A stretch of 64,000 nt of DNA from NCBI RefSeq assembly GCF_037042905.1, contig NC_087251.1:5954001-6018000 (forward strand), given 5' to 3'. The stretch's first letter is position 1; the number at the start of each line of letters is the position of its first letter. The notes below the pieces were generated by a model. It ran no database searches. It saw only the letters and a program-made list of their open reading frames with translations, and was not told where the DNA came from. This document shows positions 3,381 to 64,000 of this stretch, in pieces. The translations under genes were made by a program, and so were the position numbers. The stretch comes from Lytechinus pictus (taxonomy: Eukaryota).

Positions 3381-4513
3381 GGGCTGTTTCACAAAGCTGT
3401 TCACAGAGTTACCAAGAGCTTACAAACAATTGGAATATGGCCAACCACATGGGCCTCTTAGCCATTTTTAATTGCTTTCGCCAAAGTTTGAAACATGTTG
3501 ATGTCTATAATATTAACACTCATTGTGAGTATAAGACATATTAGTTGTGACTGTTAAGATGAGATCATAAGAAAAACTGACATTAAGTCATTTTTGTCTC
3601 GCCCACCAGAGATGAAGGCGAGACTTAGGGATCCAAATGTCGTCCATCCGTCCGTTACACGCATTTTGACACATAACTCCGCAACTGTAAGTCACTTTTT
3701 AACCAAACTTGGATGGTAGATGTACTTAGGGGACCTGCATGTTATGCTGCAGTCGGAGGTCACGTGGTAAGGTCAAAGGTCATTTTCAGGTCAACGTTAA
3801 AGTTTACATGCAAGACTCTCTTATGACCTACAACTCTGCAACCGTAAGTCACTTTTCAACCAAACTGAGATGGTAGATGTAATTCGGGACCTGCATGTTA
3901 TGCTGCAGTCGGAGGTCACATGGTAAGGTCAAAAAGGTCATTTTCAGGTCAACGTTAAAGTTTACATGCAAGACTCTTATGACACATAACTCTGCAAACC
4001 ATAAGTCACTTTTCAATAAAACTTGAATGGAAGATGTACTTAGGGGACCTGCATGTTATGCTGCAGTCGGAGGTCGCATGGTAAGGTCAAAGGTCATTTT
4101 TAGGTCAACATTAAAGTTTGCATGCAAGACTCTCTTATGACACAAAACTCCGCATCTTTAAGTCAATTTCAAATCAAACTTGGGTTGTAGCTGTACTTAA
4201 GAGACCTGCATTGTGTTTGGAGGTCACATGGTAAGGTCAAAGGTTATTTTGAGGTCAACATTAAAGTTTACACGCAAGACTCTTACGACAATTGTTATTC
4301 CATCCCAGTCATTTCACAATGAAGTTTTGATACAATTCTGTTGCGTGCCCTTGCAAATCGCGATATTTCTGGTCATTTTCACAAGTGGGCGAAACACAAC
4401 ATCGCTTATGCCTTGTTTAACTCAAGGGAAACTTTGGACTCAAATTTAGCACTCCATATTTTAGTTGTTCATAAAGTAACATTGAATTCTATGAACAGCT
4501 TATGAAATAGCCC
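3381..4513. mobile_element. Degenerate Harbinger-like MITE interrupted by a HINE element
   Basis: Imperfect inverted termini GGGCTGTTTCACAAAGCTGTTC / GAACAGCTTATGAAATAGCCC flank the 3591-4418 element. Confidence 0.45.
3591..4418 (+). mobile_element. Helentron-associated (HINE/DINE-1-like) element with ~157-bp tandem array (~4 units)
   Basis: T-tract, then a GTCTCGCC..GGCGAGAC 5' hairpin, a (CCGT)-type microsatellite and 4 units containing AGGTCAAAGGTCA. Ends with a 3' subterminal IR GTGGGCGAAAC, a short hairpin and a T-tract. Confidence 0.7.
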
Positions 4514-14305: not shown

Positions 14306-16278
14306 TAAATGTAGTGAAGACACAGAAAGAGAGAACAATCATAGATAGTATAGATTGTTATAAATTATGTAGAGGCTGTGTAACAAGAGACAGTATTGAC
14401 TTAAGTCAATGAACTCAAACATTCAAATGGTATCTACAGTACCCTGGTTTACAAAATTCAGTATGGTGCTGTTGTGTGAATGGGGCTAGTGTCTCGGTGC
14501 TGTCTACAAAATCATCCTCTTTTTCAGGTTTCATTAAGCTGTGTCACAGATATATGCTTATTGATCTAGGTCGGGTCTCAGATTTACTCCAGAAAAATCT
14601 CTGATTTGCCCTTTTATACTGCTTTGAAAGTAAAGATAAGCATTAGCTGTGTGACATTACAAGATTTTATGAAGCGGTTTGCCTGAGTATGGTTGAAGAG
14701 ATAAATTCAATCAGATGGAAAAAAAGAATGAATAATGTGAAGGTCAGTGGAATATCAATGTTTGCTATCATGTTTGGAACTGAAAGGGTGCTAAACTATG
14801 GATTATCACATAGCTGCACTTAAAACCCTCTGCTTCAGACATGTATTGAATACAGTATTGATTAGTCAAAATTATTACAGACTACACCAAACAAGCATTT
14901 TCCAATAAGGACTTAATCATTATGATTTACACCAAAATTTGTACTGCACTTTTAATTTGTAAATCAAAAGTCATAGCTATCAAGACTAAAAGTTTATGAA
15001 AGGACCCCCACTTATGTGATGTTGTGACTATGTTAGAGGACAGGTCCCCTTTAAACCTTTCTACTGATGTCAGGCTGAGTAAGTCTGTTATGAGGATGAA
15101 TAAAATCAATTTTAAAGATCTAGTTCACTTTTTGTAGTGATGTAATGATTCTGACAGTAACGTTATATTCCTTTTCATTTGAAACAGTATTCACAAAGAC
15201 AATGCCTCATAAATTCTTCTTTTGTTCTATTAGATAAACTAGAACAACTAATATACAGTGGCCTAATTTTCATGATTCATTAGTTTTCATGTCCTGTTAT
15301 GCTGCGTAGAATGAATAGATATCCTGGCAGAATTATTGTTTCATGGAGCAATAATGTATAGATACCATGGCATCACAATTGGAAGAAAGGCTTTATTCTT
15401 GCTATCTCAGTTGACTGGTTTGTTCATATTAGCATGTAAACACAAGAATTTCAAATGTTTAGGAATTATACACACTTATTGAATTCAATGGTTTTTAATT
15501 TGATTTTTTTTTTCGTATGGGCTACAGGTTTCAGATTTATTTAGTTTACTGGATTGATTGATTTCAATAGAGATATTTTTTTGGAGGATTGTTTTTATAT
15601 TTCCAATAGGCACTAAAATTAAGTAAGAAGGGTAATTTCCAGTATTCTGATCTTGATTGATTACCTCAGTATAAATACATTCACAGATTGGACAATAATT
15701 TTTTTCTTATCCTTGCAATATACATATTCTTTCAATAATTAAAAACAAATCAAATATTTTTTTGTGATAGTTTAATCAGAAAAGTTCATCAGAGAATCTC
15801 CAGGATATAGGCCTAGTGATTCTCATGACTTGAGACAAATGATTAAAATACAGTACTGATATATATGTACTGTGTATTTGAATCTGATCTAGGGCAGGTC
15901 CAAGCTATTGTCCCCTCTGAAGCCAAAATTAAATCTTTGCCTAAATCTAACATATTGTATATCATTTTAAAGCTTATACTCTGAAGTTTTTTGCCCTATA
16001 TTTTTTTTCTTCTGAAAACGCAAAGTTAATGAATGCCAAGGTCACGATTCCAAGAAATCATTAATTAGCGTGACGTACGGGACATCACATTTTTTGATCT
16101 GCAGATAATGCAAATTATATATTTGAAAATATATCTGTGGGGAGTTGTAGTGCTAAGTTAATGCAAACATTTGAGAGAAAAAGTTATTTTAAAAATTAAT
16201 TAAGTTAATTATCTGGTGTCCAACAGGCAGTGCCCTGTACGTCACAATTTAGCATATGTTTTTTTAGATTCTAATTAA

Positions 16279-16863
16279 AGGAGAATGAAACCCTTGAAAC
16301 CAGCTTAATCCATATCAAAGAGAAAAATCAAAGAAACATATTGTTGAAAGTTTGAGGAAGATTGAATGAATAATAAGAAAGTTATGAGCATTTGAATATT
16401 GAGATCACTAATGCCATGTAGATCCTCCCATTGGCAATGCGACCAAGATCTGTGATGTCACACATGTACGACTCCCTCATTACTTTAGTACTTATTTCAC
16501 TTATATTCTCACTTTTATAGAGTCTATCACAAGGTGAGGTGTTCTCTTTATGAGAGGACAAGTACAGAGGTTTCACAATATTATATCTTTGATGAATCGT
16601 TTGTCATATGATTAGAATGAGCAAAAAGAGATGTTTTGGGGTATATTTTCAGTGTCCAAAAGGGGAGAGTTGTTCATCTGTGACATCATAGATCTTGGTC
16701 GCATTGCCAATGGGAGGATCTCCATAGCAATTAGTGATCTCGACATTCAAATGCTCATAACTCTTCTATTGCTAGTCCTATTTTACTCAAACTTTTGTTG
16801 ATCTTATTCTTTGATTTTTCTGCTTTCACAAAAGCTAACTTGCTCCAAGAGTTTCATTCTCCT
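16279..16863. mobile_element. Kolobok-type palindromic MITE
   Basis: TTAA|AGGAGAATGAAAC ... GTTTCATTCTCCT|TTAA, with long imperfect inverted arms (~180 bp). TTAA TSD with purine-purine TIR start. Confidence 0.75.
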
Positions 16864-17025
16864 TTAAGGAAAAGTTGATAAGTTTTCTTCACACTTTGGA
16901 TAGTTCTAATTTATATTACTATACATCAAAAAATTAAAGTGAATTTACTGAATCAATTACATGTTTAATTATATCAGCTAATTAAGCTTTGTGACGTACG
17001 GGACACACCATACTTTATACATAGG

Positions 17026-17639
17026 ATTATCTCAACCCAGACAAAATACACGAGAGGCGAGTAAATGCATTTTCCGTGGAGTTTAATAAAAATTGTTTCT
17101 GAAAAGCATCTTCCAAATGATGTATACCAAAATGTAAAATGATGTGTTGTCAAATAAAGCCAACATAATATAATGCAACAATCAAAACATAATAATATAA
17201 ACGTAAAGCCTCCTGAGATGTGTCATATGCGAAAAATTAAAGTTATTAAACCAATCTCCTCAATTGACAATTAAAACAGTCCATCCACATTCATGACAAA
17301 GACACCAGTTTGTCATGTTGGCCAAATGTGGGCAACGTAAAATTCCATCTGCAAAGCTACGAAGCAAAGATTCCCGTTTGCAACACGAGCTTATGCAGGA
17401 AAACTTTTAAAACAGAAACTAGTGCTCAGAAGCCCCACCAACGGCCCTGAACTAGAATGTGAACGAGGCAACGTTAATGTTCGGTCCGAAATGGAATTCG
17501 CTGGTGGCCTCATCCAAATCGGGTGACGAACCAAGCCCCGTTCACATTATAACATGAGGAGTGGAATATACGAAATTGGTCTAAATAAATGAAAAATATT
17601 ATCTCAGGAAGCCCAAAATAAGTGAAGAATCATAATGTG
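17026..17639 (-). repeat. Split direct repeat B2 (614 bp)
   Basis: Matches 18307-18920 (offset 1281). One substitution seen (17442 C vs 18723 T). Confidence 0.95.
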
Positions 17640-17902
17640 ATAGGAAAAGGCCGAGCTCCAGCAAGGGCGAAAACACCCCCCTGAACACCTGATGATAAAT
17701 TAACTAAACTGGTAAACCAAAGTAAAATACAAAAAGGTATCCAAAATTAGGTGAACAGGTTGGATGGAATTACCTTGCGGCCCACTTTGGGTGTGCGACC
17801 AGGCTTAAGGCCCGAAGCTCACATTCAGGTTAGAATGAATAACATGAAACAAAACATCTTGACGTTGAAAATTAGTGGGGGTGACAAGGGGATGGAGGAG
17901 GG

Positions 17903-18309
17903 AAAAATACAGGAAGTATGTTGCACAAGACAGGTGAATTGAGATGGAAGATGCTTTCAAATCGACTCCACGAAGAAGAATGCTAACTTGTTAGAAATTG
18001 GCTTTTGCCCCCTCCCGAAATTACCACGTCAGCTAACGCGACGTAGCATTTTTAGCCACGCCTCCTTGTAATGTCCGAAAAATACCAAAATTCGCAACGC
18101 AACATTTTTTGGCCACGCCTCCTCGTGAAGTCCGACAAAATACCATATTTGGCATCGCAACATATCTCCGCCAGGGCAAAGGAATTCGCCTGACCAGGCC
18201 CTTTCCTTGTAAAACACCTGTTACGTACCGCTGGCGGGCTATGTTGTTGTCCAGCTAGTCTGACCTGAGATAACCTCTCATTAACTCGCTGCGCGCGTTA
18301 AGAGGTATT
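17903..18309 (-). repeat. Split direct repeat A2 (407 bp)
   Basis: Matches 23688-24094 (offset 5785). Two substitutions seen (18195, 18291). Confidence 0.95.
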
Positions 18310-18920
18310 ATCTCAACCCAGACAAAATACACGAGAGGCGAGTAAATGCATTTTCCGTGGAGTTTAATAAAAATTGTTTCTGAAAAGCATCTTCCAAATG
18401 ATGTATACCAAAATGTAAAATGATGTGTTGTCAAATAAAGCCAACATAATATAATGCAACAATCAAAACATAATAATATAAACGTAAAGCCTCCTGAGAT
18501 GTGTCATATGCGAAAAATTAAAGTTATTAAACCAATCTCCTCAATTGACAATTAAAACAGTCCATCCACATTCATGACAAAGACACCAGTTTGTCATGTT
18601 GGCCAAATGTGGGCAACGTAAAATTCCATCTGCAAAGCTACGAAGCAAAGATTCCCGTTTGCAACACGAGCTTATGCAGGAAAACTTTTAAAACAGAAAC
18701 TAGTGCTCAGAAGCCCCACCAATGGCCCTGAACTAGAATGTGAACGAGGCAACGTTAATGTTCGGTCCGAAATGGAATTCGCTGGTGGCCTCATCCAAAT
18801 CGGGTGACGAACCAAGCCCCGTTCACATTATAACATGAGGAGTGGAATATACGAAATTGGTCTAAATAAATGAAAAATATTATCTCAGGAAGCCCAAAAT
18901 AAGTGAAGAATCATAATGTG
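18307..18920 (-). repeat. Split direct repeat B1 (614 bp)
   Basis: Direct copy of B2. Abuts A2 with a 3-nt ATT overlap, reconstituting the predicted circle junction. Confidence 0.95.
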
Positions 18921-19894
18921 TTGTGGCAAAAAATGGAATGCCGCCAAACGGGATGACTCATCGTCAGCCTGCCGCTACAACACAATATGATGCCAATAGT
19001 TCAAACCATGCTGTATTTACAAGGTCCACGCTAAGAAGCTGGGAAAAGGGGGGGTGCATTAAACGAACAGGGTTGCACAATTAAACCATCTAGGAGGATT
19101 CATGCTCATTCAGTCCACTTGCGAAGAGTCTAGTGCCCTAAGATAAAGGAGAGGCGGGGGGGGGGGGGGCGGGGCCTAGTAACTAAATAGTGAAGTTTGT
19201 AGTAAGGACATGAGATCTGATGATACCACGTGTGAGTTCTGGATAAGGTATTCAGGTCATAACATCTGCTCATAAAAAAGTTCCAACTGTTCGCGACGTC
19301 CGAGCCAGCGAGTCCTCGACGGAGGTAAAACAGCTGTTACTCTAGTGATTTCGCTCCGCGACAAAGAAATCAAGTGTTCTCCTGTTCGCGGATGTATTGA
19401 GTTTTAGGACCCGGCCACGTGCCGAGTAGTGAGGGCCCGCCCCCAACTAGAGCGGGACTGCCCGCGTCAGCGAAACGTGAATTGACCCCTTCCTCTTTTA
19501 CGATTCCGTGGAATGCTGACACAACCCACGTTGAGACTCCAAATAACTGCACATGGAAGAGAGAAAAGGAAAGAAACTGCGGCACCAATTGTACATTCTA
19601 AAAAGGGGGGGGGTACATAGTTACCATAAACACGATAAGTGTAGCAAAGACCACAATCTACTAACAGTGGGCGAGCAATTCTGCCTGCGCCCATGGAACT
19701 ATTAACGGGTAAGATAACCATTGCGTCACCATGGCAACAATCGAGAGAGAGAGAGAGAGAGTAAGGTTAATATTTACTGCTCGTTAGGGGTTGTCAAAAA
19801 ACAAAAACAAATAAACATTAGGTCGATATTAAATTGTGCACAAACTGGTATTAAACATAGAAGGGTGATAAACATACTGGCAAAATTGCTTAAA

Positions 19895-20815
19895 TTAAGG
19901 GGGGAGAGGTTGTCGAATATACAATCTGTGTGTGTTGGAAGCCCAGCGCCCCATATTTTGAATGCAAACATCGGGAACACCTGCCATGGCTGCAGAAGTT
20001 GCCGCCCCAATACGGAAAGAATGGGAAGAGAAATGAGCAACGGGTAGCCCGCAAAAACTAATGGCACGCTTTAAAACTTGGCCAAATTGGTGCCTCGTTA
20101 GGGGTGACGAGTCAAAGTGACGGAAAAAGGCAGAGCCGACCGAGCTCCGCAGAGCGAGGTAATCATTTACAGCGCGAAGTGGGCATAAATACGAAACAAC
20201 ATTCTGTGGAATTAAAATCGAGCATCCACGTCCAGTTTGATCTGTTTTAGACCTCGCAATCACAATGCGCAATTTTGCTTGATTACCCATCCCTTGAATA
20301 ATAACATCTTTTTCTGATAAAGGAACGGGTTCATGTCTAGATCGAGACGTGAACTCCCCTACTCGAAGAAAACCAAAGAAAGCGATTAGAAAGGCAGCCC
20401 GAAACAATGCCAGATCATACGTATTAACGCATACGTGAGTCAATGAATTTAGGATGGATTTGAGAATAGGCAGGGTTATGGGACACCGGGTATCACGGCG
20501 AGCATTTTTCCGCCTGCACCCGTCTACCAGCCGCCGGATTACAAACGCGTCAGTCACATCAGGCCAACCCAATGTTTGCATCGTAAAAGCCAGGCCTGAT
20601 ATATATGTACTTATTGTTGCCCCCGCATACCCATTCCAGGAGAGATAAGCAATAAATTGAGCGACCTGCTCAACGTCAGGACGTATACTTATATCATAAT
20701 GATATTGCAGCCGAAACTGCTTAAACACAGACCAAGCGTTCCTATAAGTATGATGAGTGCCGGGCGCCCGCGAAGAAAACAACAGATGCTCTCTCTCTAT
20801 ATGAAGCTGCTCCAA
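19895..20815 (-). CDS. Tyrosine recombinase of the retrotransposon (306 aa, intact)
   Basis: All catalytic residues are present: FLRVGE (R), RSKTDQ (K), SHSFRIGAAT (HxxR), MGRW (W), LYIR (Y). Confidence 0.95.
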   Translation of the reverse strand: MEQLHIEREHLLFSSRAPGTHHTYRNAWSVFKQFRLQYHYDISIRPDVEQVAQFIAYLSWNGYAGATISTYISGLAFTMQTLGWPDVTDAFVIRRLVDGCRRKNARRDTRCPITLPILKSILNSLTHVCVNTYDLALFRAAFLIAFFGFLRVGEFTSRSRHEPVPLSEKDVIIQGMGNQAKLRIVIARSKTDQTGRGCSILIPQNVVSYLCPLRAVNDYLALRSSVGSAFFRHFDSSPLTRHQFGQVLKRAISFCGLPVAHFSSHSFRIGAATSAAMAGVPDVCIQNMGRWASNTHRLYIRQPLPP

Positions 20816-22463
20816 AGATGGGCGGGAAGCTTGCTGCCAGCCAGATCTGCGCCTGGTGCTAACCTGCGAAACCTGTCCATCTGAAAACGAGAGAGGGCAT
20901 CAGCCTTTTCATTGCGAGAGCCTGGCACGTAACGTGCTTTGAACATAATATTATGTTTCAAACAAAGAACTACAAGCAAACGAACCAGTTTCATTACACT
21001 AGGACATTTCGAAGTTAAGGAATTAACAACATGAACAACTGATTGATTATCTGACCAAAATAAGACCTTAGAATTAGCTAGAAGAGCCCCCCACATACGT
21101 ATACCGACTACTATTGGGAAAAGCTCTAGAAAAGCGATGGAATAATTCTTCTCCAGTATTTCAGCTGGCCATTTCCCTTGAGCCCACTTATCCTGGAAGG
21201 ATATACCAAAGCCAATGCTACCCGCAGCGTCAGTAAAGAACTGAAAATGAGCATTAGTTACCCATGTTGAGTGTGAAAACATAACTGTGCCATTGAAATC
21301 AGACAGAAACGTAAGCCAGGCCTGCATGTCCTCTTTTGCGCCGCGTGAAAGCCTTATCCGGTGGTTTGGGTGCGGACCCCTTTAGTAAGATCGATAAGTC
21401 TCCTTAGGAAGGCTCTTCCGGGAGCCACGGCTTTACACACGAAATTAAGGCTGCCAATTAGCGACTGCAACTGCCGCAACGAGAGCTTATCTTTCTTAAC
21501 AAAATCAATGAGCATTGCCTGTAACACGTTTACTTTCTCCTTGGGTACCCGAACTCTCTGCTCAGCCGCGTCGATTTCAAGCCCTAAAAATATGATAGTG
21601 GGAACGGGCCCCTCAGTCTTCTCCTCCGCTATCGGGACGCCAAAAACCTCGCACATCGCCTTAAAATGATACATCAAGGAACGACATTCCTGCCGTGTTG
21701 CGCCAACGAAAAAGAAATCATCCAAATAATGCAAAATTTGCTCTGAATTCGCAATTTCACGGCAACATGACTCAAGAAAAGTGCTAAAACGCTCAAAATG
21801 GGCACATGAAATTGAGCAGCCCATTGGCAAGCATTTATCAAAGTAATACGCGCCATCAATGCAAAACCCCAGAAGGTCAAAATCGGAGGGATTCACTGGT
21901 AGTAAGCGAAAAGCGGATTTTATATCGGTTTTTCCCATGAGAGCACTAGCTCCCAAGCGAGCAACGAGATCAACCGCCTTGTCAAATGAAGTGTAATTCA
22001 CGGAACATAAATCGGAATCAATGTGGTCATTAACCGAAGCCCCCCGAGGAGAAGATAGATGCTGAATTAGACGGAATTCTCCCGGATTTCGCTTGGGGAC
22101 GAGCCCTACCGGGGAGCAGCGAAAGTTATCGAAAGGCGGGTCTTGGAAAGGACCTGACATTCTCCCTAAACTAACTTCCTTACCAACTTTCTCCAACAGC
22201 ATGTCCCTATGCTCCCTAGCTGATTTCAAATTACGCGAGAACACAGAGCGACGCTCGCCTGTGAAACCCAATGAAAAACCCAACCTAAAACCAGAAATCA
22301 GCAAAGCTGCATTATGTTGATTATGGTGCCGTCTAAGAAATGGGAGCATGCTGCCAAGTTTAATTGGAGTTGGAGCTAGGCTTCTGTTTGGTGATTGCAG
22401 CGGCAGAGTTGCAGGCGTGTGAGCCATGCGCTGCTGAGGAGCATTTTCCGCACCGGTGAGCAT
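20797..22463 (-). CDS. Reverse transcriptase / RNase H polyprotein, split by one frameshift near 21369
   Basis: ORF 22463-21354 has DIRS-type RT motifs (KTDIKSAFR, LPMGCSIS, HYLDDFF, FLGLEID). ORF 21327-20797 has RNase H motifs (FTDAAG, LELFPIV, SDNQSVV, ADALSR). Adding one base in the G3 run at 21368-21370 fuses them (..GVRTPNHRIRLSRGAKEDMQAW..). Confidence 0.92.
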
Positions 22464-23464
22464 AACGACAGGCGGTGCGTTGGCATGACCCAGCGTTAAA
22501 GGCGAAACAGACTGGTGAGGAGCGGAAGGGGGCAGGCGCCAGGGGCCCGAATTGCCCCTTGTCTGTTGGCATATCCTGAGGATGGGAAACTACCCCGCCG
22601 AAACGACCGGTCGTATGGCCGAAAGGGCTGGTTACCCCCAAAAGACGAAAACGCTGCTCGACCGGGCGTCGAAGCTACTGTCAGCCATAGCTCGGTGTCT
22701 ATGACAGCCCAGGAACGATGTGGATGACGGGCCTGACGTAACCGAAATTGAATGTCATAGGCCCGCCAATTGAAACCCCCAAAACGCACAATAGAGCGAA
22801 CGATATCCATATACTTGAGGAGCTCGCGCGCACGCATACAGTGTCGCTCCAAGTATATAGAGGCGTAAATAATGAACGCAGATGTCCACTGTTCTATGCT
22901 GGCGATCACCGGAGCCTTGCTTTGGGGGCGAAGCATTAAAGCGGACCCGGTGGCACAAAGGCTGAAGGCCTGCAACTGGGAACTTTCCTCACTTAAGCTT
23001 TCCCTTTTTAGTAATCCACCTAACTCTACAAATTCACCTTTCCAAATCTTCTCCTTAACACTGGAAGGCACCTCCCCGCCCAAATCATCACACACACAGC
23101 TAAGCATATCTGGCTGCGCAGACAGCGTAGGAAAAGGAGGGCTGGGGGCTGGTGTAAAATTATCATGACTATTAATCCCCTCAACTACAGGGGCAGGAGG
23201 GATAGAAGGAGAAGCTTGGGATTGAATTTGAGGAATGACCGGCTCTTGTGGAGAAGTCACAAGAGGCCAGGAGCCCCCCATTGTCCCGAACTCACCGTTG
23301 GTTGTCGACGCCGAACTTCCAGCAGCTGGGCTCTGCGTAGAAGTAAAAACTTGGCCGACGTCTGTCTCGAGGTCGACAGGAGAAGGCTGGCTGGCGGCAT
23401 CTCGGACCGAACGACGAGTAGACTTCCTCTGACTTAACTTTTTGCCTGGCTTAACCTTGGGCAT
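22360..23464 (-). CDS. Gag-like ORF1 with C-terminal Cys/His zinc finger, split by one frameshift near 22530
   Basis: ORF 23464-22496 has Ngaro-like ORF1 blocks (KEKIWKGEFVEL, IEQWTSAF, WRAYDIQFR). The zinc finger CFAFNAGSCQRTACRYAHRCGKCSSAAHGSHAC lies in another frame (to 22360). Removing one base from the G5 run at 22528-22532 fuses them. Confidence 0.85.
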
Positions 23465-23687
23465 GATTGAATAATGCAGGGGTGGCGAAATTGAAAGGTC
23501 CTTAGACTAGAGCAAACTGTGACTCCTAACAGCTCAAAAGTCCAACAAACGGATATAACACAAATATACAGGTATGTTCCCAGATAAAAGAATAAATTCT
23601 CAACTGCGAAGCGTTCTTTAAGATATATGAATGGGTAAGAAAGACAATTAGAAGGATCACAACTAAAGAGTTCAACGAACGAATAAC

Positions 23688-24094
23688 AAAAATACAGGAA
23701 GTATGTTGCACAAGACAGGTGAATTGAGATGGAAGATGCTTTCAAATCGACTCCACGAAGAAGAATGCTAACTTGTTAGAAATTGGCTTTTGCCCCCTCC
23801 CGAAATTACCACGTCAGCTAACGCGACGTAGCATTTTTAGCCACGCCTCCTTGTAATGTCCGAAAAATACCAAAATTCGCAACGCAACATTTTTTGGCCA
23901 CGCCTCCTCGTGAAGTCCGACAAAATACCATATTTGGCATCGCAACATATCTCCGCCAGGGCAAAGGAATTCGCCTGACTAGGCCCTTTCCTTGTAAAAC
24001 ACCTGTTACGTACCGCTGGCGGGCTATGTTGTTGTCCAGCTAGTCTGACCTGAGATAACCTCTCATTAACTCGCTTCGCGCGTTAAGAGGTATT
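23688..24094 (-). repeat. Split direct repeat A1 (5' end; probable internal promoter)
   Basis: Copy of A2. On - it contains a ~58-bp tandem duplication, each unit with GGAGGCGTGGC (Sp/KLF-like), followed by TGACGT and CCAAT upstream of gag. The promoter role is inferred. Confidence 0.9.
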
Positions 24095-25793
24095 TCTATG
24101 TAATTCTAATTAGGGTTATTTTTCAATTAGGAGCAAAGATAAAGTAAATTGAGATAAATGATATTAGTTCAGTGGTTGAATATTGTTAAAAGGCTGATAA
24201 TAAAGTTATGAGCTTTTGTCTGGTCCCATACGTCACAGCGCATACTAATTAAAATATTACATCATAAATGGAATTGTAGATCATTAATTTTTTTACTGAA
24301 TAAAGAGGGCACAACTGGCCTTCCAAAATCCATAAAAGATTCTCTGTTGTGCATTTATTTTACACAACTTTAAAGTCTCTAAATGTCCCATACGTCACAA
24401 GTCAAATAGCTTGGACCTGCCCTCTCTAGTAAATATCAAAGTTTAGAGTCCTTTTCAGATGAAATGAAAAATTAAATCTTTCACCCTTATGTTACAGAGT
24501 AGACTGATACTGATATAAAATAAGTAAACTTAATAATCTTAGTATCTTGAATTATATCAGGGACAGATGATTTGCATTTTACCCAGTTTTGTAAAAAACC
24601 ACTTTTCAATATAAACTGTGCATTTAAACTTAAAAAGTCATAACATAATTTTCCATAATTTTCTATATTAAGAAGAATAGTGACATTACAAGAGAATGTG
24701 ATAAATTTGATCTAAAATTCAAACTCAAGTTTCCAGATATTGTTACAGAAAATGACATGACATCCTTTAAGCAGTGTTAAGATTTAAGTTTTTATAAAGA
24801 GCCAGTATGATTCATATATATTGATTGATCTTTATAAAGCACTAACATACCAGTATTACAAGTAATATTAAAAAAAAACAGTACACAATTTTCAATTTTT
24901 TTATTTCATCAATATAGATATAAAGTGATTTCTGCTCATGCTTTTAGAGTCATTTTTGTTCTCTCTTCATCATACTATTGAAAAAAATCTTGAATAAAGA
25001 TATAACAAGCCGGTCAAATATGTAGATTGTTCAAAAATTAGACCAAATATGCATCTACGATGCAATGTAGAATGGATAGATAGAAAGATATGTAAATGAT
25101 ATATATAAAAAAATGAAGAGATATGTGTAATGTTTTTAACCTTGTTTATGCAAACATTCTTTGTCCATTCTCATCCTGCAGTACCAGTATGTGTGATAAG
25201 TGAAAAATGCCTAATTTGATGTTATCTTGTTGCTTTATACTTATATTGATAAAAGCGTGTGATGTACTAAAGCTGACATTTCTAGGATGATATTTAGGTA
25301 TATGTACATGTGTTGAAAGAAAACATGTTATATGTATAAATATAAATGTTGGGATATTCACTATTGATTGAATAGATGATAAACTATAAAAAAACAATCA
25401 GATTAGCAATTATTCATAGACAGATAAACACATAACCCAGATAACAAGTTGTTATCAGAATGTGTCATTAGAGCTGTTCAAACCCACCTGACAAGGAAAA
25501 ATTGATATGTGATTAGCCAACCCAAAACCAACAATAAGTCGCCCAGAGATTTCATTGAGCTTGAAAAAACACATATAAAGATATTAAATGATTTGAAACT
25601 CAAATTTGAAGAAATTCAACAAGAGCTTCAAACAATAAGGAGACAACAATGTTTCAAGTTCAGGGTTCACTGAAGCATGAGTGTGCATATAGTCCACAAA
25701 AATTGGTGTTAAAAACTATTCTATCTTGTCTTTTTTTAATAATCAACTTTACGATTTCATTTTTTTGACTGCAAGAAGAAGAATTACTCTTTC

Positions 25794-26143: not shown

Positions 26144-26738
26144 TTTTTGTCTCACCTGCGAAGCAGAGTGAGACTATAGGCGCCGCTTTTCCGACGGCAG
26201 CGGCGTCAACACCAAATCTTAACCGAAAGTTAAGTTTTTGAAATGACAGCATAACTTAGAAAGTATATAGACCTAGTTCATGAAACTTGGCCATAAGGTT
26301 AATCAAGTATTACTGAACATCCTGTGCAAGTTTCAGGTCACATGATCAAGGTCAAAGGTCATTTAGGGTCAATGAACTTTGGCCAAATTAGGGTATTTGT
26401 TGAATTACAGCCATGAATTTGAAAGTGTGTTGGTCTAGTTCATAAAACTTGGACATAATAGTAATCAAGTATCACTGAACATCCTGTGCGAGTTTCAGGT
26501 CACATGATCAAGGTCAAAGGTCATGTAAGGTCAAAGAATTTTGGCCACGTTGGGGGTATTTGTTGAATTGCCATCATATCTCTATAAGTGTATTGGTCTA
26601 GTTAATAAAACGTGGAAATAAGAGTAACCAAGTATCACTGAACATCTTGTGCGAGTTATAGTAGTTTTCAAAATCAGCACTGCTGCTATATTGAATCGCG
26701 TGATGCAGGTGAGACGGCCAGAGGCATTCCACTTGTTT
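26144..26738 (+). mobile_element. HINE/DINE-1-like element with short tandem array
   Basis: TTTTT-GTCTCACCTGCGAAGCAGAGTGAGAC 5' hairpin, GACGGC microsatellite and ~165-bp units with AGGTCAAAGGTCA. Ends with the 3' subterminal IR GCAGGTGAGAC, a hairpin and TTGTTT. Confidence 0.75.
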
Positions 26739-32800: not shown

Positions 32801-35355
32801 TTCAGTGATATGCTCACTACTCAGCATTCTTCAGTCATTTCTACAAATTCAATTAATATATAGCTTGAGTTATTTGAAAAATACAACCAACCTCTTTATC
32901 TTATGATTGTTTGGTAACCTGTAACAAATTAAAATGATGAAATGAGTGAAACCAGTGATTTTTTTAAATTACTGGTTAATAAGTTAATTGATTTATATCT
33001 GAAATATGAGCACACATGCTATATTTTTAATATAGATATGTGCAAAAAATCAATAAACTTCTTAATCTCACTTCTCTAGTCATCTGCATATAATATTCAG
33101 TAAGTCAATATTGATGCCTGACATTAAATTTCTTTGATGACATACATTGGAATGATAAATGTTATAGTACATATTCATTTTTTATGATACTCGTATTGAC
33201 ATAGGTTATTATTAGTAGTAGAAATATTAGTAGTAGCAGTAGCAGCTTTTAAGGTAATGGAATGTAAAATAAGCATTCAGTCAAAGACACTTAAGTATAA
33301 ATTTATTATAAGATGACAATCTTCTTTTAATGAGATGGAGTGTAATTATAACTTATATTAAACTTGAATTAGAATTATCAATCAAGGAGTGCAATATGAT
33401 TAAATGAATACTTATTGTGAATTGTGACTTTGATATTAAGAAACATAGTTGATGCATGTATTATGTTTGTTCTTTAAATAAATATTTAATGAACATAAAA
33501 GTGGTATTTTTGATTGGCAAGCTTCTTGAAAAAAAATCACTACTGACTCTGTAAAAAAAAAATCATTTTCGTCCCTAGTGCAATTAAAACTATCTGACTT
33601 GTGAAACCCTGTTTGATAAACCAGTTTACATGGCACTTTTATTTCTTTAAAAAGCTTTTGTTCTTCTCCATTTCCGTTTTCAAATTGAGAAATAGGACAA
33701 GTTATCAGTGTTGTGGTTTTGGAAACGATTTAACAAATAGTGGCAAAGTTTACAAGTTCTACAAAAGCTCGTATTTCACCCTCCATTAACGATTGCTCCA
33801 GTAAAGAGTAGTTTACCTTCTTCTTGAAGTAACCACAAACATACTGTGTATTTGGTTTGATGAGATGTAAGGAACCTGTGGTCATTTTCCCTTTGCCCAC
33901 CAAATTGAAATAAATCTATTTAAAACAAAGTTAAAATTTGTTTTTATTTAAGTTAGTTTGGTGTTCTGAGATTGAATTTTAACAATATTTTGATTGATTT
34001 CTTTTTGTATTCTATATCAATTCACACATTCATTACTCTATCAAAATGTTAGAAATTACTTGTAATCATTTTATGTGATGTGGAGACAGAGAGGGATTTA
34101 TAGACCCCACCTCATTTACATTATTTTAGAGAGTTGGGCAGTATTTATTTGTTTTCGTTTGCCCTCTTTGTTTTCTTCTTCAAGTATTTCATCTGTATAT
34201 GACAAATTATGTTAGCTTGTTTTAAGAATTAGATCACTCCTGATGGAAATTTGTAGTTGATGTATAAAATTGTGTCATCCTGAGTTTATTTTCTTTGTAT
34301 TACCTGTTGTTTCAGGCCTATTTGCTATTAACGCAGATTAGAACAGATAATTTAACACAATGTTGATCTACATTTATTTTTTTATGTATGGCTTAGTGTG
34401 AAAGAACAATTACATGTGTCAAATGACCTAGTTTACATTCGTTTCATGACTCATCTTAGGTGGGATAAATTCATCATTAGATGATCAGTAATCGATGTCC
34501 ACCATCCCTGAACCATCCAATCACTCATGAATAAGTCATTAAAAGATAGATACGGCTTGATGGCATACTAACAGTACACATTTATGTAGGCTTCATCCTC
34601 AAAGAAAAATAAGTGTGTTAGTGTTCTAATTAAAATGATGGCCGTTGCCTACCATTAATATGCATTGTAGTGTTCTCAGTCTCTTTAATGCCACCATGCT
34701 CATGAATTGTGAAGCCGCCACTTACATTTGTAGACGGTCGCTGTCGTGTGCCCTCAAGCACATCGGAGGTATCTGAAATGGCGATTAATTTGTCAAGCCA
34801 GCTCACGCGATTCCCTCGGGGTTGTCACAAGGAATTTTGTTTGATGTTCTTTTGTTGGACAACACCTCTCTGGCCTCATTTACTTGCTGTCTTTTTTGTC
34901 TCCTATATTCATCATCTCACAATTAGCTTTGTTTCTCCTTCCAATTTGACATGTTTTTTTTCAAGTGTGTATTCCTTTGTTTTTTGTCATAGTTTTAAAA
35001 TTGAAGGCTGAACATCCAAAGTGTTACATTCATTTTGACAAGAATAAACACAAACACAAAAGCTAATATTTTTTATTTATAAGTCAAAATTTATTTCTAA
35101 GTCTGGTGGCTCTCTTGTAAGCTGTATGAGCAAATTTTTTAAGATTTAATTTCAAACAATAATTGTTTGTAAATTCAGACTTGGATAAGAGTCCTTGGAT
35201 CCTTTGAATCATCAGATATGAACCAATATATGTGCAGATAAATTAATGTAACAATCATGTATTGATGAATGTGATGAAAGTTATGTACCAATGAACAGTC
35301 TTTATTGTTAAGTTACTTACAGTTTTCCTTCTTTACTTCTTCTCATAAATTGCAG

Positions 35356-37436
35356 GTTCTGAAGCAAGTAGCACATACCCTGCTGTAGACATGACACCTT
35401 CCATGTACACCCATGCTCCTGCAGGTACCCTTGATTCAAAGAACAAACACCTGACAAGCCTTGAACTCCTGCACCATGGAACTAGAGACACCAACACCAC
35501 CAAACAGAAGGTCATTCATGTGGTAGCACCATTTGAACCAAGCAAGTCTGAGGATATGAAGAATGCTGGTATTAAAGCAGAGCCAAAATCAGAACCTGGT
35601 GAAGATGTTGAGCATGGTGAGCAGATGAGTGATATTCAGTTACCTGAAGCTTTTCGGGAAACAATCAAGAATCCAATTGCAAGATCAGTTCCTGAATTGA
35701 TGGAACAAGGGGTTGCTGTGGATTCAAAGGCCTCAGATTGCCATCTTCCTCACAAACCTTTACCCTCAAAACACACTTTAAAACAATCCATGCAGTCCTT
35801 GAAAGTCAAGCAAAATTCTGTAGTCAGCCAACAGGTTGTTGAGGTTGAATCTGACTCAAAGCCATGTCATGCAAATGGAAAAGGAGAATATAAGTCTGAA
35901 CCAAGGAAGCATATAGTAACTCCTCCAAAGGATTATTTTTCACATCAGCAGACATTGAAAGAATCCAAAGACTCAGCTGGGAGATCAGAGTTGAAAATCT
36001 CAGGGAAAACAGCATCTGCTCCAGATGTTAAGACAACTTGCGCATCAGGGAGTACAGGAAAAGCAGATCACCAATTCAGGTACCTAAACCAACAAAAGAA
36101 GGAAGCAGTGACACACAAGAGTAAATCACTCGGAATCAACATGAAAAGACTTCGCAAATCACCTGTCAAGAAGCTTGTTGAGGAAATTCCAGTCAGTTAC
36201 TCCAAAAGGAAATATGGAAAGAGGAGAAAAAAATCTGATGCATCCAGTAATGAGAAGAAAAGTGATATTTCTTTGGCCAGCAAGGGTATGTTGATATGTG
36301 ATGACAAGAAATCAGTTCATCCAAGAAAGGATGTCACTCTGATGGTTGACAAAGATCAACAGAAAAGGATACCAATGGAATCAAATAATCTGAAAGGGAA
36401 TCATTCAACATCATCAACATCAAGTACAGGTCATAAACACTCAAAGCATGAGGATGGAACAAGCATTTATGAGATTATAATCACACCTGAAAAGAAAAAG
36501 AAACATAGAAGTAGGAAGAGGAGTCTTCAAATTATAGATGATAGTGTCATCAAAAGAACTAGGACAAAACGTACAACATCAGAAATGATTGAAATGAAAG
36601 TAGTGGATGATTCTCAAGGAAGTACAGAGAAATGTAGTTTAGAATCCTTGAACTCTCCTAGCTCCAGTATGAAACAATCAGAGGCTGGGTTATCATCATC
36701 TGAATCCTCAACAGAGCAAACATCTTTGCAATCTAAGATGCACTTTCTTTCAAGGTTACAGGTAGCAGGAGATAACAAATCAGTCAAGCTTTCTCTGTCA
36801 TCTTTGTCAGGGACACCAACCTCTTCATCATCAACAAAGTCTTCATTACAGAGTTTTATGAGACGGTCTTTAGAAAGTAGCCCATTACCAGAACAGCTTA
36901 CTAAAACTGCATTAACATCATCAGAGAGAAAGACTGATGCTAAAATTGTTCATGAACATTCGATTGGAAGAAACAAACTAATGCAAAGGGATATTCCTTT
37001 GCTTTCATCATCATCACCATCACCATCATCAGCAACATCGTCATCACCAGATTTGATACCTTCATCATTATACCCATTATCATCATCAAATAGTCATCCT
37101 TCTCAGCTTGTAACCAAGCAAACTTCTCCAGCTTTACAAATCAAGAAATTATTTGGAGGATCATCATCCAGAGACTCGTCCACACCTCAAGAATCAGTAA
37201 CAGTAGCTCCAAGGCAACAAAGAAAACATTCTTCTCAGCAACGAGTAAAAGCATCTTCCATCCAACATAGGAAACCATCTCCCAAAGAACAAAGGACAGC
37301 TTCCCACATGCAACAGAGAAAATCAACCACCATGAAATGGAGGAGAGTATCACCCAAGCAAGAGAGGAAAGCATCTCCCAAGGTACCAAAGAAATTATCT
37401 CCCATGAAACAGAGGAAAGTGTCTTCCAATGTGCAG
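35356..37436 (+). CDS. Large exon encoding a Ser/Lys-rich low-complexity C-terminal region, probably of the kinase gene
   Basis: 2081-bp open frame (ORF 35391-37484) bounded by polypyrimidine-TGCAG| and CAG|GTAATT. Its phase-1 start is compatible with the 5968 donor. Linkage to the kinase exons is inferred. Confidence 0.8.
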
Positions 37437-38921
37437 GTAATTAATATATTACATCCATGCTGTAATTCTAATAGGGATGTATAACATCCTTAGTAGGACC
37501 AAAGAACAAAGACTTGATAAGGTCTAACCTGCAATGTTAACCATAGACTACTCAATTATCTATAAACTAGATTATCAGATATACTATTAACTAGAATCCC
37601 TCTATTCTTATTAACATTTCCTTCACTTGAACATGCTCTGCTAAATGAGAAAGACATTATGAAAATCTTTAGCAAGTCCATTCGTACAGTCCTTCATTGG
37701 GAACTTTACTTTGTTCTTCTCACAAAAGGTTCAGCAACTCAAGTTTGGAAATAATTTCTTAATGCTCCTTTATCATATGTAAATATGGTGTCATTGGAAA
37801 GCATGGTTGTAACCCATTAAAATAAAGATAAAGATGCAACCATGTTATAAATAGAATATTGCACAATTGATTGTTTTCTGTAATGAATTCAAGGACAGAC
37901 CGAGTTTGAATGATATTGATGTATTGATGTGTGATGTCCACATGTGTATTTTCATTTACAAAGTTAAGTTTGGTTGGAATAATGTTGAACCCTGTCATTT
38001 TAGAAAAATGTTAGGATGTAAACATGAAATTGGTATGACTAGAAAACTTTATTATTTCCCTTTACAATGAGGTATCATTTGTTTTGATTACAGAAGTATA
38101 GAACATCATAGTAAACACAAGTATAATTTTTAATTTAAATAATGGATTTATTGTTTTCTTTAGTCAGCCCACCTGTGTGCTTTGAAACACCTGTATTAAG
38201 TGCCCTATAAATGTTATTATTATTATTAAGAGGAGTAATTACCTTTTCCAGAGGGCCAACCCTAATTTTGTTAAATACAGGTATGGGAATGTGCAATTAG
38301 TGTGACTTGGGCCCCATAACATTCAGCTTGGCCACCGACCATTACAATCAATCATAGATATCAGCCCCACAAGCAATCCCTAAGCTTTATGTTACAGGCC
38401 AAGGGTGGTGTTTCACAAATCATACTCCATTGGTGTGACATATGATTGCATCACTACATTGGTCAGATCACACTGATGGGGCACACACTACTGTGTTATA
38501 TCAATGAGCATACATGGTTAATATTATGTTTGCGGTGACACTTAATCACATCTTTTATTCTGATTTAAATGTTTGTGAAACTGCCCCTCGTTTTGTACAC
38601 ACAGTAATGACAGAGAGTCTAATGAGTCTCTGAATCATCTCTAACTGCTATTAACTGCTATTTAGAAGTTGCAAATCCCTAATACTAAAAATGAATTTTC
38701 AATGTAAATATTAGTACTATTGTCACCAGGAAAATAAAATCACTTGAAAGTTCAGGAAAAACTTCTTGGGCTATTAGAGAACCTCATTAGATGGATTTAA
38801 CTTAACAAACAGCTTTATAAAACAAGGCCTTCCTGATCTAATTACCAATTTGTCTTCTTTATTTTATTCTATTTTTATTTTTTTATTTGCAATGTTCATC
38901 AATTTCAATCCTAATCTCCAG

Positions 38922-52700: not shown

Positions 52701-55700
52701 ACATTAGTTCAAATGTATAAGAATTAATGTTTGATCATGCTTGCACCATGATTCTTTCAAATTTGATAAACTTAGAATTAATATTTGATTACCCTTATGT
52801 CTGTGTTTCATGAACTACATGTGTAGATCCATAAACGTTTTAAGTTATGATGCAAATTCAATAAATGCCCCCAACACGGCCAAAGTTCATTGACCCTACA
52901 TGTAAATGACCTTTGATTTTGGTCATGTGACCTGAAACACGCACAAGATATCCAGGGATACAAGGTTACTCTTATGTCTCAAGTTTCATGAACTAGATCT
53001 ATAAACTTTTAAAGTTATGATGACAATTCCACAAATAACCCCAACATGGTCGGTTTGTTGACCCTAAGTGACCTTTGACCTTGATCATGTGACCTAAAAC
53101 TCAGGCAGGATGTTCAGTAATACTTGATTACCCTAATTTCCAAGTTTCATGAATAAGGTCCATATACTTTTGAAGTTCTGCTATGCAGGCGAGACAAAAA
53201 TGAAGCATTAGAAAATGTAGATAAGAAAATGGTAAAAAGAAAAAAACAAGGCAAACGCCAAGCCTTGTCTCGCCTGCATATTGCAGTCATGAAGAGACTG
53301 CATGTCAAATCTGAAGGGTAACATTTAAGAAACTTTGACAGCTTTTCTATTGTACCATTGGCAAATTTGTGTGAATATAAATGGTGCCAAGAACTATAGC
53401 TCATTAAATAAATAACAACAGTTTTTAAAGAATAAACAAGTAAAATACAAAATCTGGTTCAGGTATAGAGTACTGAGTTCTGAAGTAAAATGTTAGTGTT
53501 AAAAAGTATAAAATTATAAAGTTCATGTCACTAGAGGAACAAAGTAGTGTGAAAGTTCATTGACCTTTGACCGTAATCAAATTCAACTCACATTCGAACC
53601 TGACCTGCACCTTGAAGAGATGGACCTCTGTTACGAGTTTGGCGATCCCACCTCGAAGCTATAGAAAGTTATTGTGTGTACAAAATAGCACAGTGCCAGT
53701 CATGGAAAGTTCATTGACCTTTGACCTTAATCAAATTCAACTCACATTTGAACTTGACCAGCACCTTCAAGAGATGGACCTCTTGTATGAATTTGGCAAT
53801 CCTACCTCGAAGATATAAAAAGTTATTATGTGTACAACACAGCACAGTGCCAGTCATGGAAAGTTCATTGACCTTCGACCTTATTCAAATTCGGGTCACA
53901 TTTGAACTTGACCTGCACCTTCAAGAGATGGACCTCTGTTATGAATATGGCGATCTCACCTCGAAGCTATAGAAAGTTATTGTGTGTACAACACAGCACA
54001 GTGCCAGTCATGGAAAGTTCATTGACCTTTGACCTTATTCACATTCGACTAATATTCGAACTTGACCTGTGCCTTCAGGAGATGGACCTCTGGTATGAAT
54101 TTGGTGATCCCACCTCAAAGCTATAGAAAGTTATTGTGTGTACAACACAGCACAGTGCCAGTCATGGAAAGTTCATTGACATTTGACCTTATTCACATTC
54201 GACTAATATTCGAACTTGACCTGTGCATTCAGGAGATGGACCTCTGGTATGAATTTGGCGATCCCAACTCGAAGCTATAGAAAGTTATTGTGTGTACAAC
54301 ACAGCACAGTGCCAGTCATGGAAAGTTCATTGACCTTTGACCTTTGACCTTATTCAAATTCGACTCATATTCGAACTTGACCTGTGCCTTCAAGAGATGG
54401 ACCTCTGGTATGAATTTGGTGATCCCACCTCGAAGCTATAGAAAGTTATTGGGTGTACAACACAATTGTTGACGACGACGACACCGACGCCGGAAATAGT
54501 GATACCTATGTCTCGCTCCACTACGCAGGCGAGACCAAAACCTAAACTTCTCTAAGATACTAGTCTCTAGAACTGCTGCTAAAAAAATACATTCTTCTTG
54601 ATACAAATAAAATACCTGCATTTCAAGGGAAGTACATGTATGTTCAAAATAAAACCTACCTTATAGCCTCGGTGTGAGCTCTCTCAGCAAGCTCAGCAAT
54701 CTTCTGACTAGCCTCCTGCTGAAGACGAATCTTCTCTTCAAAGAATTTATGTTCCATCCTCTGTAACTGTTGTTGATGCTCCTTGTTTGTTAGGAACATC
54801 TCTTCTTTGATCTACAACGCATAACATTAACAATGGCAGAAAATTCACATAAGTTAGACTGTTTTAGTAGAAGAGTATATTAGTGAAAGACAGACTGTCT
54901 CAAGAATTGTCTTTAGAAAGAAAAAGACAATGAGACATTGCTTACAATCACAAAAGAATTGAAAATCACAAGGGAAGAAGTGTTGTGAAAGTTGGATGTT
55001 ATAACATGTACCATGAATTGTAGGTCTTGCCTTCTAAACAAACGTGACAGATCATGCATTCTTGTTCTTTTGGTGTAACGGTAATAATTAAGTAGTCCAA
55101 TACATGAGAGGTACCATGCTTCTTGAAAAAAATTATCTTCCTACAAGTGGAATTTAAATTAAGTACAACCCTACAAGATATCTTTTGAAATGCAATTAAA
55201 CATACAAAAATAATATTCAGTTACATAACTAAAAGAGGCTGCCATATTTACCTCATCTAGTTCTTTCTGCATTTGTCCCCTCTTTCTTCTGAATTCTTTA
55301 ACAAGCTTGAGCTCACTCTGCATCATCTTTACTTCTTCAGTTTTATCTGTAAGAGCCTGCTCTAACTGATGAAATCTTTCAGTGAAGTCCTCGATCTGAA
55401 AAAGAAATGTTTTCCTCTAATTTGGGTTTCAATACCATTGAATATTGTATGAACTACAATGTCCCATGCATATATTCAATATATTCCTAAAGTTTGAAGA
55501 TCAAAGCCCCCCCCCCCCCCCCCCCAAAAAAAAAAAAAAAAAAAAAAATCAATAATTTTCATTGAAAAAAAATTTCATATTTCAAACACTGCAGTGCTCT
55601 GATGGACCAACTGATCATTAAAATATAATCTGTTACAAACTATCATTGCCCAAATTCTTACAAATAGTGAAAGATGGACAAATCTCTAATTTGCTTCTGG

Positions 55701-63302: not shown

Positions 63303-64000
63303 AACACAAGTGGAATGCCTCTGGCTGTCTCACCTGCATCACGCGATTCAATATAGCAGCAGTGCTGACTTTGAAAACTACTATAAAATAATTATTCACA
63401 AAAAACACCATTCATATGATGATACAATACTATACGTTCATTGACATTTGACCTTGATCATGTGACCTAAAACTTGTCAGTGATACTTGATTACCCCTAT
63501 ATCCACATTCTATACACTATATCTACATTGTATAAACTTTGAAAGTTATGACAGCAATCTAATAATTACCTCTAAAATGGCCAAAGTTCAATGACCTTAA
63601 ATGACCTTTGACTTTGGTCGTGTGACCTGAAACTCGCATGAGATGTTCAGTCATACGTGATGACTCTCATGTCCAAGTTTTATGAACTAGACCAATATAC
63701 TTACAAGACTTATGATGGTTATTCAACTACTACCCCCAACATGGCCAAAGTCCATTGACCATTGACCTTGGTCAAGTGACCTGAAACTCGCACAAGATGT
63801 TCAGTGATACTTGATTACTCTTATGGCCAAGTTTCATGAATCAGATCCATAAACATTCAAAGTTATGACGGTAATTCCACAGATACCCCATTATGGCCAA
63901 AGTTCATTGACCTTTAACGTTGGTCACGTGACCTGAAATTCGCACAGGATGTTCAGTGATACTTGATTACTCTTCTGTCCAAGTTTTATGAACTAGACCA
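63303..64000 (-). mobile_element. HINE-like element (family of 26144-26738), runs off window
   Basis: 63303-63385 is the reverse complement of 26655-26738, followed by ~160-bp TGACCTTTGAC units. Confidence 0.75.

Follow-up and report, generated by a model that had tools for sequence, protein, structure and literature searches.

How does a retrotransposon that carries a tyrosine recombinase (YR) enter its host chromosome without duplicating the target, and from which RNA is that recombinase made? The question is raised by a Ngaro-like element of 7069 bp on the reverse strand of a 64,000-nt stretch of Lytechinus pictus DNA (contig NC_087251.1, positions 5,954,001 to 6,018,000; this whole stretch is called the window and is numbered from its first letter). 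The value of the locus lies in two family-wide features, a proposed splice junction (23296/20880) and a 48-nt hairpin with a predicted strand and cut position. With a confidence that stays just short of even, we propose that animal Ngaro elements integrate like integron cassettes, i.e., that an attC-like hairpin of the sense strand would be exchanged as a single strand with a nearly unspecific host site by a Cre-related YR made from spliced RNA, and that replication would complete the reaction. Feature coordinates are collected in Table 1.

The element is almost certainly a recently inserted Ngaro-like YR retrotransposon of a Lytechinus-type sea urchin. On its coding (-) strand the order is A1, open reading frame 1 (ORF1), pol, YR, a unique region of about 1 kb, B1, A2, a unique spacer of 263 bp, and B2. 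The split-direct-repeat layout A1...B1-A2-B2, which an earlier note on this DNA had given with no mention of the spacer, is exact by coordinates. The two B copies (614 bp) differ by 1 substitution (17442/18723) and the two A copies (407 bp) by 2 (18195/23980 and 18291/24076), i.e., 3 differences in 1021 bp or 0.3% divergence, which agrees with the 3 visible substitutions over about 1020 bp reported before and with the recent insertion proposed on that ground. Repeat identity serves as no more than a rough clock, because each jump would recopy only parts of the split repeats. The trinucleotide ATT of the + strand (AAT on the coding strand) is indeed found at both termini and at the B1/A2 junction (17026-28, 24092-94 and 18307-09), and the absence of a target-site duplication was likewise borne out. 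All repeats inside the element are direct; neither inverted terminal repeats nor an internal complementary region, the marks of DIRS1-like elements, are present.

At the meeting point of B and A, four short boxes form a nested palindrome. Its usual form is TTAA-N7-TTAA-loop-TTAA-N6-TTAA, and that of the window is ATAA-N6-TTAA-N13-TTAA-N7-TTAT, with a compensatory change between box 1 and box 4. Among 12 independent elements, box 1 pairs with box 4 in the predicted DNA fold of 11 (z from -0.9 to -4.8); the fold of the window site (z -5.3) was matched by 0 of 200 shuffles and is stronger than all 176 segments sampled from the element. The 5 nt outside the outer boxes vary between elements and are complementary at 42 of 60 positions, a count that none of 20,000 permutations reached. 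The full hairpin is formed only where B meets A, at -15.0 kcal/mol compared to -9.0 and -3.2 at the two ends. Two further loci that were missed by the strict scan for this form, L039 and L057, have a hairpin of the same shape with altered boxes, and the scan found the form in 1 of 261 shuffled sequences. The arrangement is that of an attC-type site, four boxes folding into a duplex with an unpaired spacer, by predicted folds and covariation only. It is likely, judging from these sequence patterns, that the YR binds the four-box palindrome at the B/A site.

The joints with host DNA were read from 60 sequences of at least 5.5 kb, 15 of which were flagged with the full layout; 12 independent elements were kept, the window's being placed by coordinates, and L096 (unrelated repeats), L103 (an old copy whose anchor failed), and L070 (5' flank the same as that of L069) were dropped. 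The loci, drawn from metagenomes and bacterial genome bins, presumably represent DNA of animal hosts. Each junction has a pair of TTAA-like boxes separated by 6-8 nt (7 or more of 8 positions matching, against a background of 116 in 77123 positions), and in 12/12 elements the host joint includes the inner edge of box 1, so that box 1 closes B2 and the element's own spacer opens A1. Cleavage by YRs takes place immediately 3' of the arm that they bind, and a host joint at box 1 would therefore mean that the sense strand is the one exchanged. Little is asked of the target: its spacer is identical to that of the element at 25 of 84 positions, near chance, and its arms match TTAA at 44 of 96 positions, with about 30% expected from composition.

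The host flanks of the window element carry perfect 7-bp inverted arms around the insertion point (17018-17024 and 24096-24102). Arms of this kind occur at only 2 of 3988 ATT sites, and a less strict rule gives 25 of 3986. A target palindrome was rejected as a rule, with arms of 0-6 bp in 12 other targets (background of 7 bp or more, 70/3179) and an axis other than the one of the box pair. The window was also searched for another copy of the flanking repeat that could represent the empty host site, and none was found.

The YR frame lacks a Met before residue 107, which brings in the second part of the question. Database protein P0001 of L. pictus consists of the first 56 gag residues joined to the YR. 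The window has a donor, GTGAGT, at 23295 and a pyrimidine tract with a CAG acceptor at 20881; its two exons translate into 384 aa with 1 mismatch to P0001. In Diadema antillarum, YR protein P0008 and gag protein P0251 are 100% identical over residues 1-50, and models from L. variegatus, Pecten, and Mytilus have the leader joined at or near the same point; isoforms joining the gag leader to the YR are thus annotated in at least two sea-urchin genera. These isoforms are automated models, and the splice signals were therefore checked in DNA.

For the acceptor, 121 sequences (120 loci and the window) were reduced to 83 with both motifs at the right distance, 71 after dereplication, and 64 with the YR in the -1 frame; relatedness is not corrected for in the p values. 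Gln at motif codons 7 and 9 is encoded by CAG and CAA at 54:7, compared to 294:257 upstream in pol (p 4e-8; n = 64 sequences) and 82:41 further down the overlap (p 0.001). In these 64 sequences, 76 of 90 AG dinucleotides at the acceptor are in the required phase, and Arg there is encoded by CGN, which avoids AG, in 58. Fourfold sites at the acceptor are pyrimidines in 144 of 205 cases (70%), compared to 3796 of 7346 (52%), and from the AG onward no stop interrupts the YR frame in 50/51. The 13 sequences without AG in codons 6-10 have an in-phase AG at codons 12-17, mostly after a pyrimidine run, and no Met precedes codon 55 in 35 of 63. At the donor, where the median column conservation of gag leaders is 0.275, Gly is kept in 39/42 and Glu in 28/42. 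From these signals, a spliced RNA that joins the leader donor at 23295 to the acceptor at 20881 and gives a 384-aa recombinase is quite probable.

Several observations weigh against this conclusion, among them the automated origin of the isoforms. The donor phase is right in 14/19 sequences and in 10/19 of the control (scored with a weight matrix), which is thereby not beaten; and no spliced read or contig across 23296/20880 was found in the X1 contigs or in the X23 RNA run, of which only 122 reads matched, too few for transcript start, end, or strand. The YR could instead be made without splicing, by -1 ribosomal frameshifting from pol, giving a Pol-YR fusion, or by internal initiation. The YR frame is indeed -1 to RNase H in 64 of the 71 dereplicated sequences, with a median overlap of 109 nt, and a Met does precede codon 55 in 28/63; the missing junction read speaks for this possibility as well. 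Slippery heptamers, however, occur in 3 of 63 overlaps where about 7 are expected by chance, and the CAG bias, the pyrimidine tract, and the AG-avoiding Arg codons are marks of an acceptor that, like the annotated isoforms, do not fit it. Production of the YR without splicing is unlikely.

With splicing as the preferred route, both frame breaks of this copy, described below, lie in the predicted intron, and the copy could therefore still supply the YR in trans. Retroviral env and foamy-virus pol are made from spliced mRNAs, in which a downstream gene is reached from the 5' part of the genomic RNA. The case proposed here resembles them in its splicing to a downstream gene with an acceptor within pol coding sequence and differs in that the spliced product would be the integration enzyme and would retain a gag leader. 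For pol spliced from the same donor, the best acceptor is phase-compatible in 20 of 28 relatives, compared to 141 of 302 for all YAG, and no strong compatible acceptor was found in the window. A strong acceptor-like site at 22512 is in phase with the gag finger frame and not with pol; splicing from 23295 to 22512 would yield leader plus finger and would place the pol ATGs (22463 and 22349) near the 5' end.

These elements suggest the following chain. Unspliced RNA, running from A1 into B2, would encode Gag and serve as template for the reverse transcriptase (RT), as in the DIRS model, while spliced RNA, in which the 56-codon leader is joined to the acceptor within the RNase H coding sequence, would encode the recombinase. 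RT would rebuild both ends on the internal B1/A2 junction and close a circle. The joined B/A site, bound by the YR, would offer a duplex with an unpaired 6/7-nt spacer, either as a folded single sense strand or as an extruded cruciform; at the box1/spacer edge, the YR would exchange one strand with a host site only weakly resembling the boxes, and replication or host repair would resolve the resulting junction. We lean toward this chain, with the exchange step in either folded form, and hold its more specific version, an integron-like exchange of folded single-stranded sense DNA by analogy to attC, to stand at about even odds. At folded integron sites, one exchange takes place, because a second would give closed linear ends, and the junction is resolved by replication (PMC3458562); the cDNA of DIRS-1 is single-stranded (PMC7192593). 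The A/B joint is present in X1 and X10 contigs, in which a circle and the internal junction look alike.

Two other accounts of the exchange have to be weighed. In the DIRS model of the textbooks, recombination with the host proceeds from a double-stranded circle via an identical trinucleotide, which would be ATT/AAT here, and the hairpin would be incidental or serve reverse transcription. The model is stated in PMC7192593 and PMC3266345, the latter describing the start/end trinucleotide of DIRS1-like elements; the window shares 3 nt with its target, and the target arms match TTAA above expectation. Among the 12 elements, however, element and target overlap by 1, 2, 0, 1, 0, 4, 3, 1, 1, 1, 0, and 3 nt, and a trinucleotide core is not general because overlaps range from 0 to 4 nt, with none in three elements. 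The conserved, covarying signal is instead the four-box palindrome, and ATT as the recombination core is not upheld; the trinucleotide model appears very doubtful for these elements. In the other account, boxes 1 and 2 would be an ordinary double-stranded YR site on the circle, and both strands would be exchanged without spacer homology followed by biased repair, or a host resolvase would cut a non-migrating junction, boxes 3 and 4 being accessory or a signal in RNA or for RT. The usual YR site consists of two inverted arms that enclose 6-8 bp (PMC3212892), a Starship YR uses TTAC(N7)A targets and a circle (PMC10104507, bioRxiv 10.64898/2026.09.21.753150), and the full hairpin is also present in the RNA. 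By itself, though, such a site leaves unexplained the compensatory changes of box1/box4 and box2/box3 and the constant one-nt spacer asymmetry, and an unbiased double exchange would be expected at both edges, whereas 12/12 joints lie on one; we consider it rather unlikely.

The folded-strand exchange that we prefer has difficulties of its own. The crossover side indicates the sense strand, but the cDNA of DIRS-1 is antisense and for the most part linear (PMC7192593). L103 and L075 misfit on the A1 side, and an extra box in L110 leaves its crossover side ambiguous. All 11 relatives that have host flanks fall in a sister clade (RT identity 35-41%), several of them from one assembly, and the window site is the least typical of the set (spacers 6/7 instead of 7/6 and box 1 ATAA). 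The strict scan finds the hairpin in only 21 of 87 loci with at least 600 nt behind the YR, many of which stop short of the junction, and of 44 AT-rich tiles of host DNA in the window, 5 contain its form as well. If the exchange is as we propose, it would be a case of structure-specific single-strand recombination in eukaryotes, by a recombinase that takes a folded single strand as substrate and leaves the choice of target nearly free; it would replace the trinucleotide-homology model for this Ngaro-like clade and matter for transposon biology and possibly for integration tools.

The likeness to integron attC x attI recombination is one of working and not of membership. Shared are the four-box nested palindrome, the unpaired central spacer, the variable loop, and the single fixed crossover side (PMC3458562); the window element, in contrast, is a eukaryotic retroelement with a nearly unspecific host target, its use of a single strand is predicted only, and its YR profile is nearest to Cre. 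This profile, built from 30 YR sequences, had Cre as its best match among solved structures (E 2e-10) and gave no match to IntI among them. Starship elements likewise combine a eukaryotic YR, a short TTA-type box with an N7 register, and a circular intermediate (PMC10104507), but they are DNA transposons whose conserved target shares real homology of 4 nt with them, whereas the homology of spacer and arms to the target is weak in the family of the window element.

Split repeats behind the YR and the absence of a methyltransferase (MT) set Ngaro elements apart from PAT and DIRS1 (PMC9210276, PMC4157794, PMC3266345). On both counts, the Ngaro-like class assigned in the earlier note holds, as pol ends about 35 aa past ADALSR with no MT domain behind RNase H; in homologues, the tail past the motif has a median of 34 aa and exceeds 100 aa in 1 of 75 with the motif. 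PAT-like elements share the split direct repeats A1-B1-A2-B2 and have an MT domain behind RNase H (PMC4157794), where the pol of the window stops. DIRS1-like elements share RT/RNase H (RH) with a YR, ends rebuilt on an internal template, and an unduplicated target, but theirs are inverted terminal repeats, an internal complementary region, MT, and an NTT trinucleotide (PMC3266345), whereas the window has direct repeats and no trinucleotide is fixed among its relatives. With the Ngaro elements LvNgaro1/2, DrNgaro1, and those of Cafeteria (PMC8547959), the element has in common the order A1-[gag, RT/RH, YR]-B1A2B2 with a same-strand YR behind pol, as well as the lack of MT and of a target-site duplication and a sea-urchin host; it differs by its unique A2/B2 spacer and by lacking a hydrolase ORF, for which the region behind the YR was searched. 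LvNgaro1 and LvNgaro2 are named from Lytechinus variegatus (PMC6681497, supplement rows; 12 of 13 files searched), and the element may belong to the same family as these two. Neither a spliced YR mRNA nor a folded junction was found for Ngaro in the literature passages searched, two key Ngaro papers being outside their coverage. In an RT tree built without an outgroup or a named Ngaro, PAT, or DIRS1 reference, the window RT falls among echinoderm and other animal homologues, the flanked relatives above forming a sister clade.

Table 1. Features of the Ngaro-like element, in window coordinates
Feature	Coordinates	Strand	Remarks
Whole Ngaro-like YR retrotransposon, 7069 bp	17026..24094	-	
Repeat A1, 407 bp	23688..24094	-	At its start, own spacer of the element and junction-hairpin boxes 2-4
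Gag leader, ATG + 56 codons	23296..23464	-	Predicted exon 1 of the recombinase mRNA; donor GT starts at 23295; P0001 and P0241 share residues 1-56
ORF1 (gag-like)	22360..23464	-	C-terminal CCHC finger; frame break at about 22535-22540
Predicted GT-AG intron, 2415 nt	20881..23295	-	Holds both frame breaks; acceptor inside RNase H motif ADALSRFQ
pol (RT, RNase H)	20797..22589	-	No room for a methyltransferase; frame break at about 21367-21372
Tyrosine recombinase exon	19895..20880	-	Open; in the stop-to-stop frame, residue 107 is the first Met
Unique region 3' of YR	18921..19894	-	
Repeat B1, 614 bp	18307..18920	-	AATAAA/ATTAAA-type hexamer at 18368
Four-box junction hairpin	18267..18314	-	Box 1 18311-18308, 6-nt spacer, box 2 18301-18298, 13-nt loop, box 3 18284-18281, 7-nt spacer, box 4 18273-18270
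Repeat A2, 407 bp	17903..18309	-	Contains a 57-bp tandem duplication at 18049-18163
Unique spacer A2/B2, 263 bp	17640..17902	-	Link present in X1, X9, and X10 contigs
Repeat B2, 614 bp	17026..17639	-	Stops just past box 1

The copy in the window is a young, broken member of the known Ngaro type and ordinary in itself. It had been described as structurally complete, with gag, RT/RNase H, and an intact YR, and as a clean substrate for studies of mechanism. The YR does stand, its frame being uninterrupted from 20899 to 19895 and containing the HSFRIG motif as well as the conserved R and Y; in the coding sense, completeness fails, and with two frame breaks the copy is no clean substrate. ORF1 changes frame before its CCHC finger, which is out of frame with the rest, and the RT frame meets a stop at 21354, RNase H lying in a different frame. 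Homologues switch frame on the window at the two breaks listed in Table 1. RT and RNase H are in a single chain in 116/120 pol homologues, the finger motif is present in 38/54 gag homologues, and the sister gag P0241 (97% identical) reads through into the finger without a break. The RT, RNase H, and YR domains (Pfam RVT_1, 1e-13; RT_RNaseH, 3e-4, below the cut-off; Phage_integrase, 6e-7) are co-oriented in the order gag-RT/RH-YR, with pol split by its break. For the main part of ORF1, there was no Pfam match and a weak CCCH finger match; its predicted model (pLDDT 66) resembled nothing clearly, the best fold matches (Z 5.0) being unrelated helical proteins. The unique region behind the YR has no coding-strand ORF of 100 aa and matched nothing in Pfam or Rfam.

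With a frame break in both gag and pol, the copy is not autonomous unless the breaks are assembly errors, and it is very probably non-autonomous, the remaining probability going to such errors. That both breaks arose in assembly and the copy is fully intact is improbable: the pol break does adjoin a short G run and the repeats are only 0.3% apart, but the gag break is a multi-base difference, with 5 gap letters in the X1 contig across the site and a longer sister protein there, and the copy has private substitutions relative to X1, X9, and X10 (e.g., 18723, 20958, 21042, and 21301). A homopolymer slip as the cause of the gag break was considered and rejected. A one-base indel relative to the window at 21367 was found in 3/3 runs that cover the site, of 4 compared; the comparison took 4 of 24 listed runs and covered 18307-25700 only, from B1 through A1 into the right flank.

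Among named proteins, those of L. pictus are nearest (YR 99%, gag 97%), which points to this species or a near relative as the host. Among the listed pieces, X1 contigs differ from the window at 21 of 4059 positions (about 0.5%, with one diverged piece, 20/166, excluded), X9 contigs at 26 of 2968 (about 0.9%), and X10 contigs at 115 of 2654 in five coding pieces and at 56 of 785 in the unique flank. In X10, the interior is covered at a depth of 320-1309 and the unique flank at 34-39, which suggests many copies in organism C, the source of X10, although depth is not copy number. The family is young, and close, read-through sisters exist; neither an empty allele nor a circle or transcript was seen to bear out the present activity that the earlier note took as probable. 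Over window positions 22138-22858, X1 also contains a diverged, internally deleted relative at about 6x the depth of the near-identical copy, with joints 22138/22692 and 22858/22926. None of 61 pattern matches in viral contigs encodes a relative. Forty loci in bacterial or archaeal genome bins (L081-L120) encode YR elements of this eukaryote type, in some cases with complete split repeats and on contigs of megabase size, and are probably host DNA binned with microbes. L110 has full split repeats and a YR without an RT match in 4.5 kb, with a 950-bp spacer; it is a deleted, non-autonomous form in which the hairpin is kept.

Around the element, a 15-nt motif occurs twice on the left (16070 and 16991) and twice, inverted, on the right (24223 and 24385), and another inverted pair lies at 15891-15909 and 24405-24423; the element is apparently nested in a host repeat whose ends are inverted. 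At 24235-24481, X10 depth exceeds 5000. Elsewhere in the window are two long MITE-like foldbacks, at 16275-16867 (about 590 bp, 80% self-complementary) and 58217-58748 (about 530 bp, 94%), and, on the + strand at 35349-37484, a 711-codon open frame of low complexity with no Pfam match, which is probably a large host exon. Tandem arrays with units of about 155-160 bp occupy 3664-4290, 26235-26657, 52768-54464, and 63306-64000.

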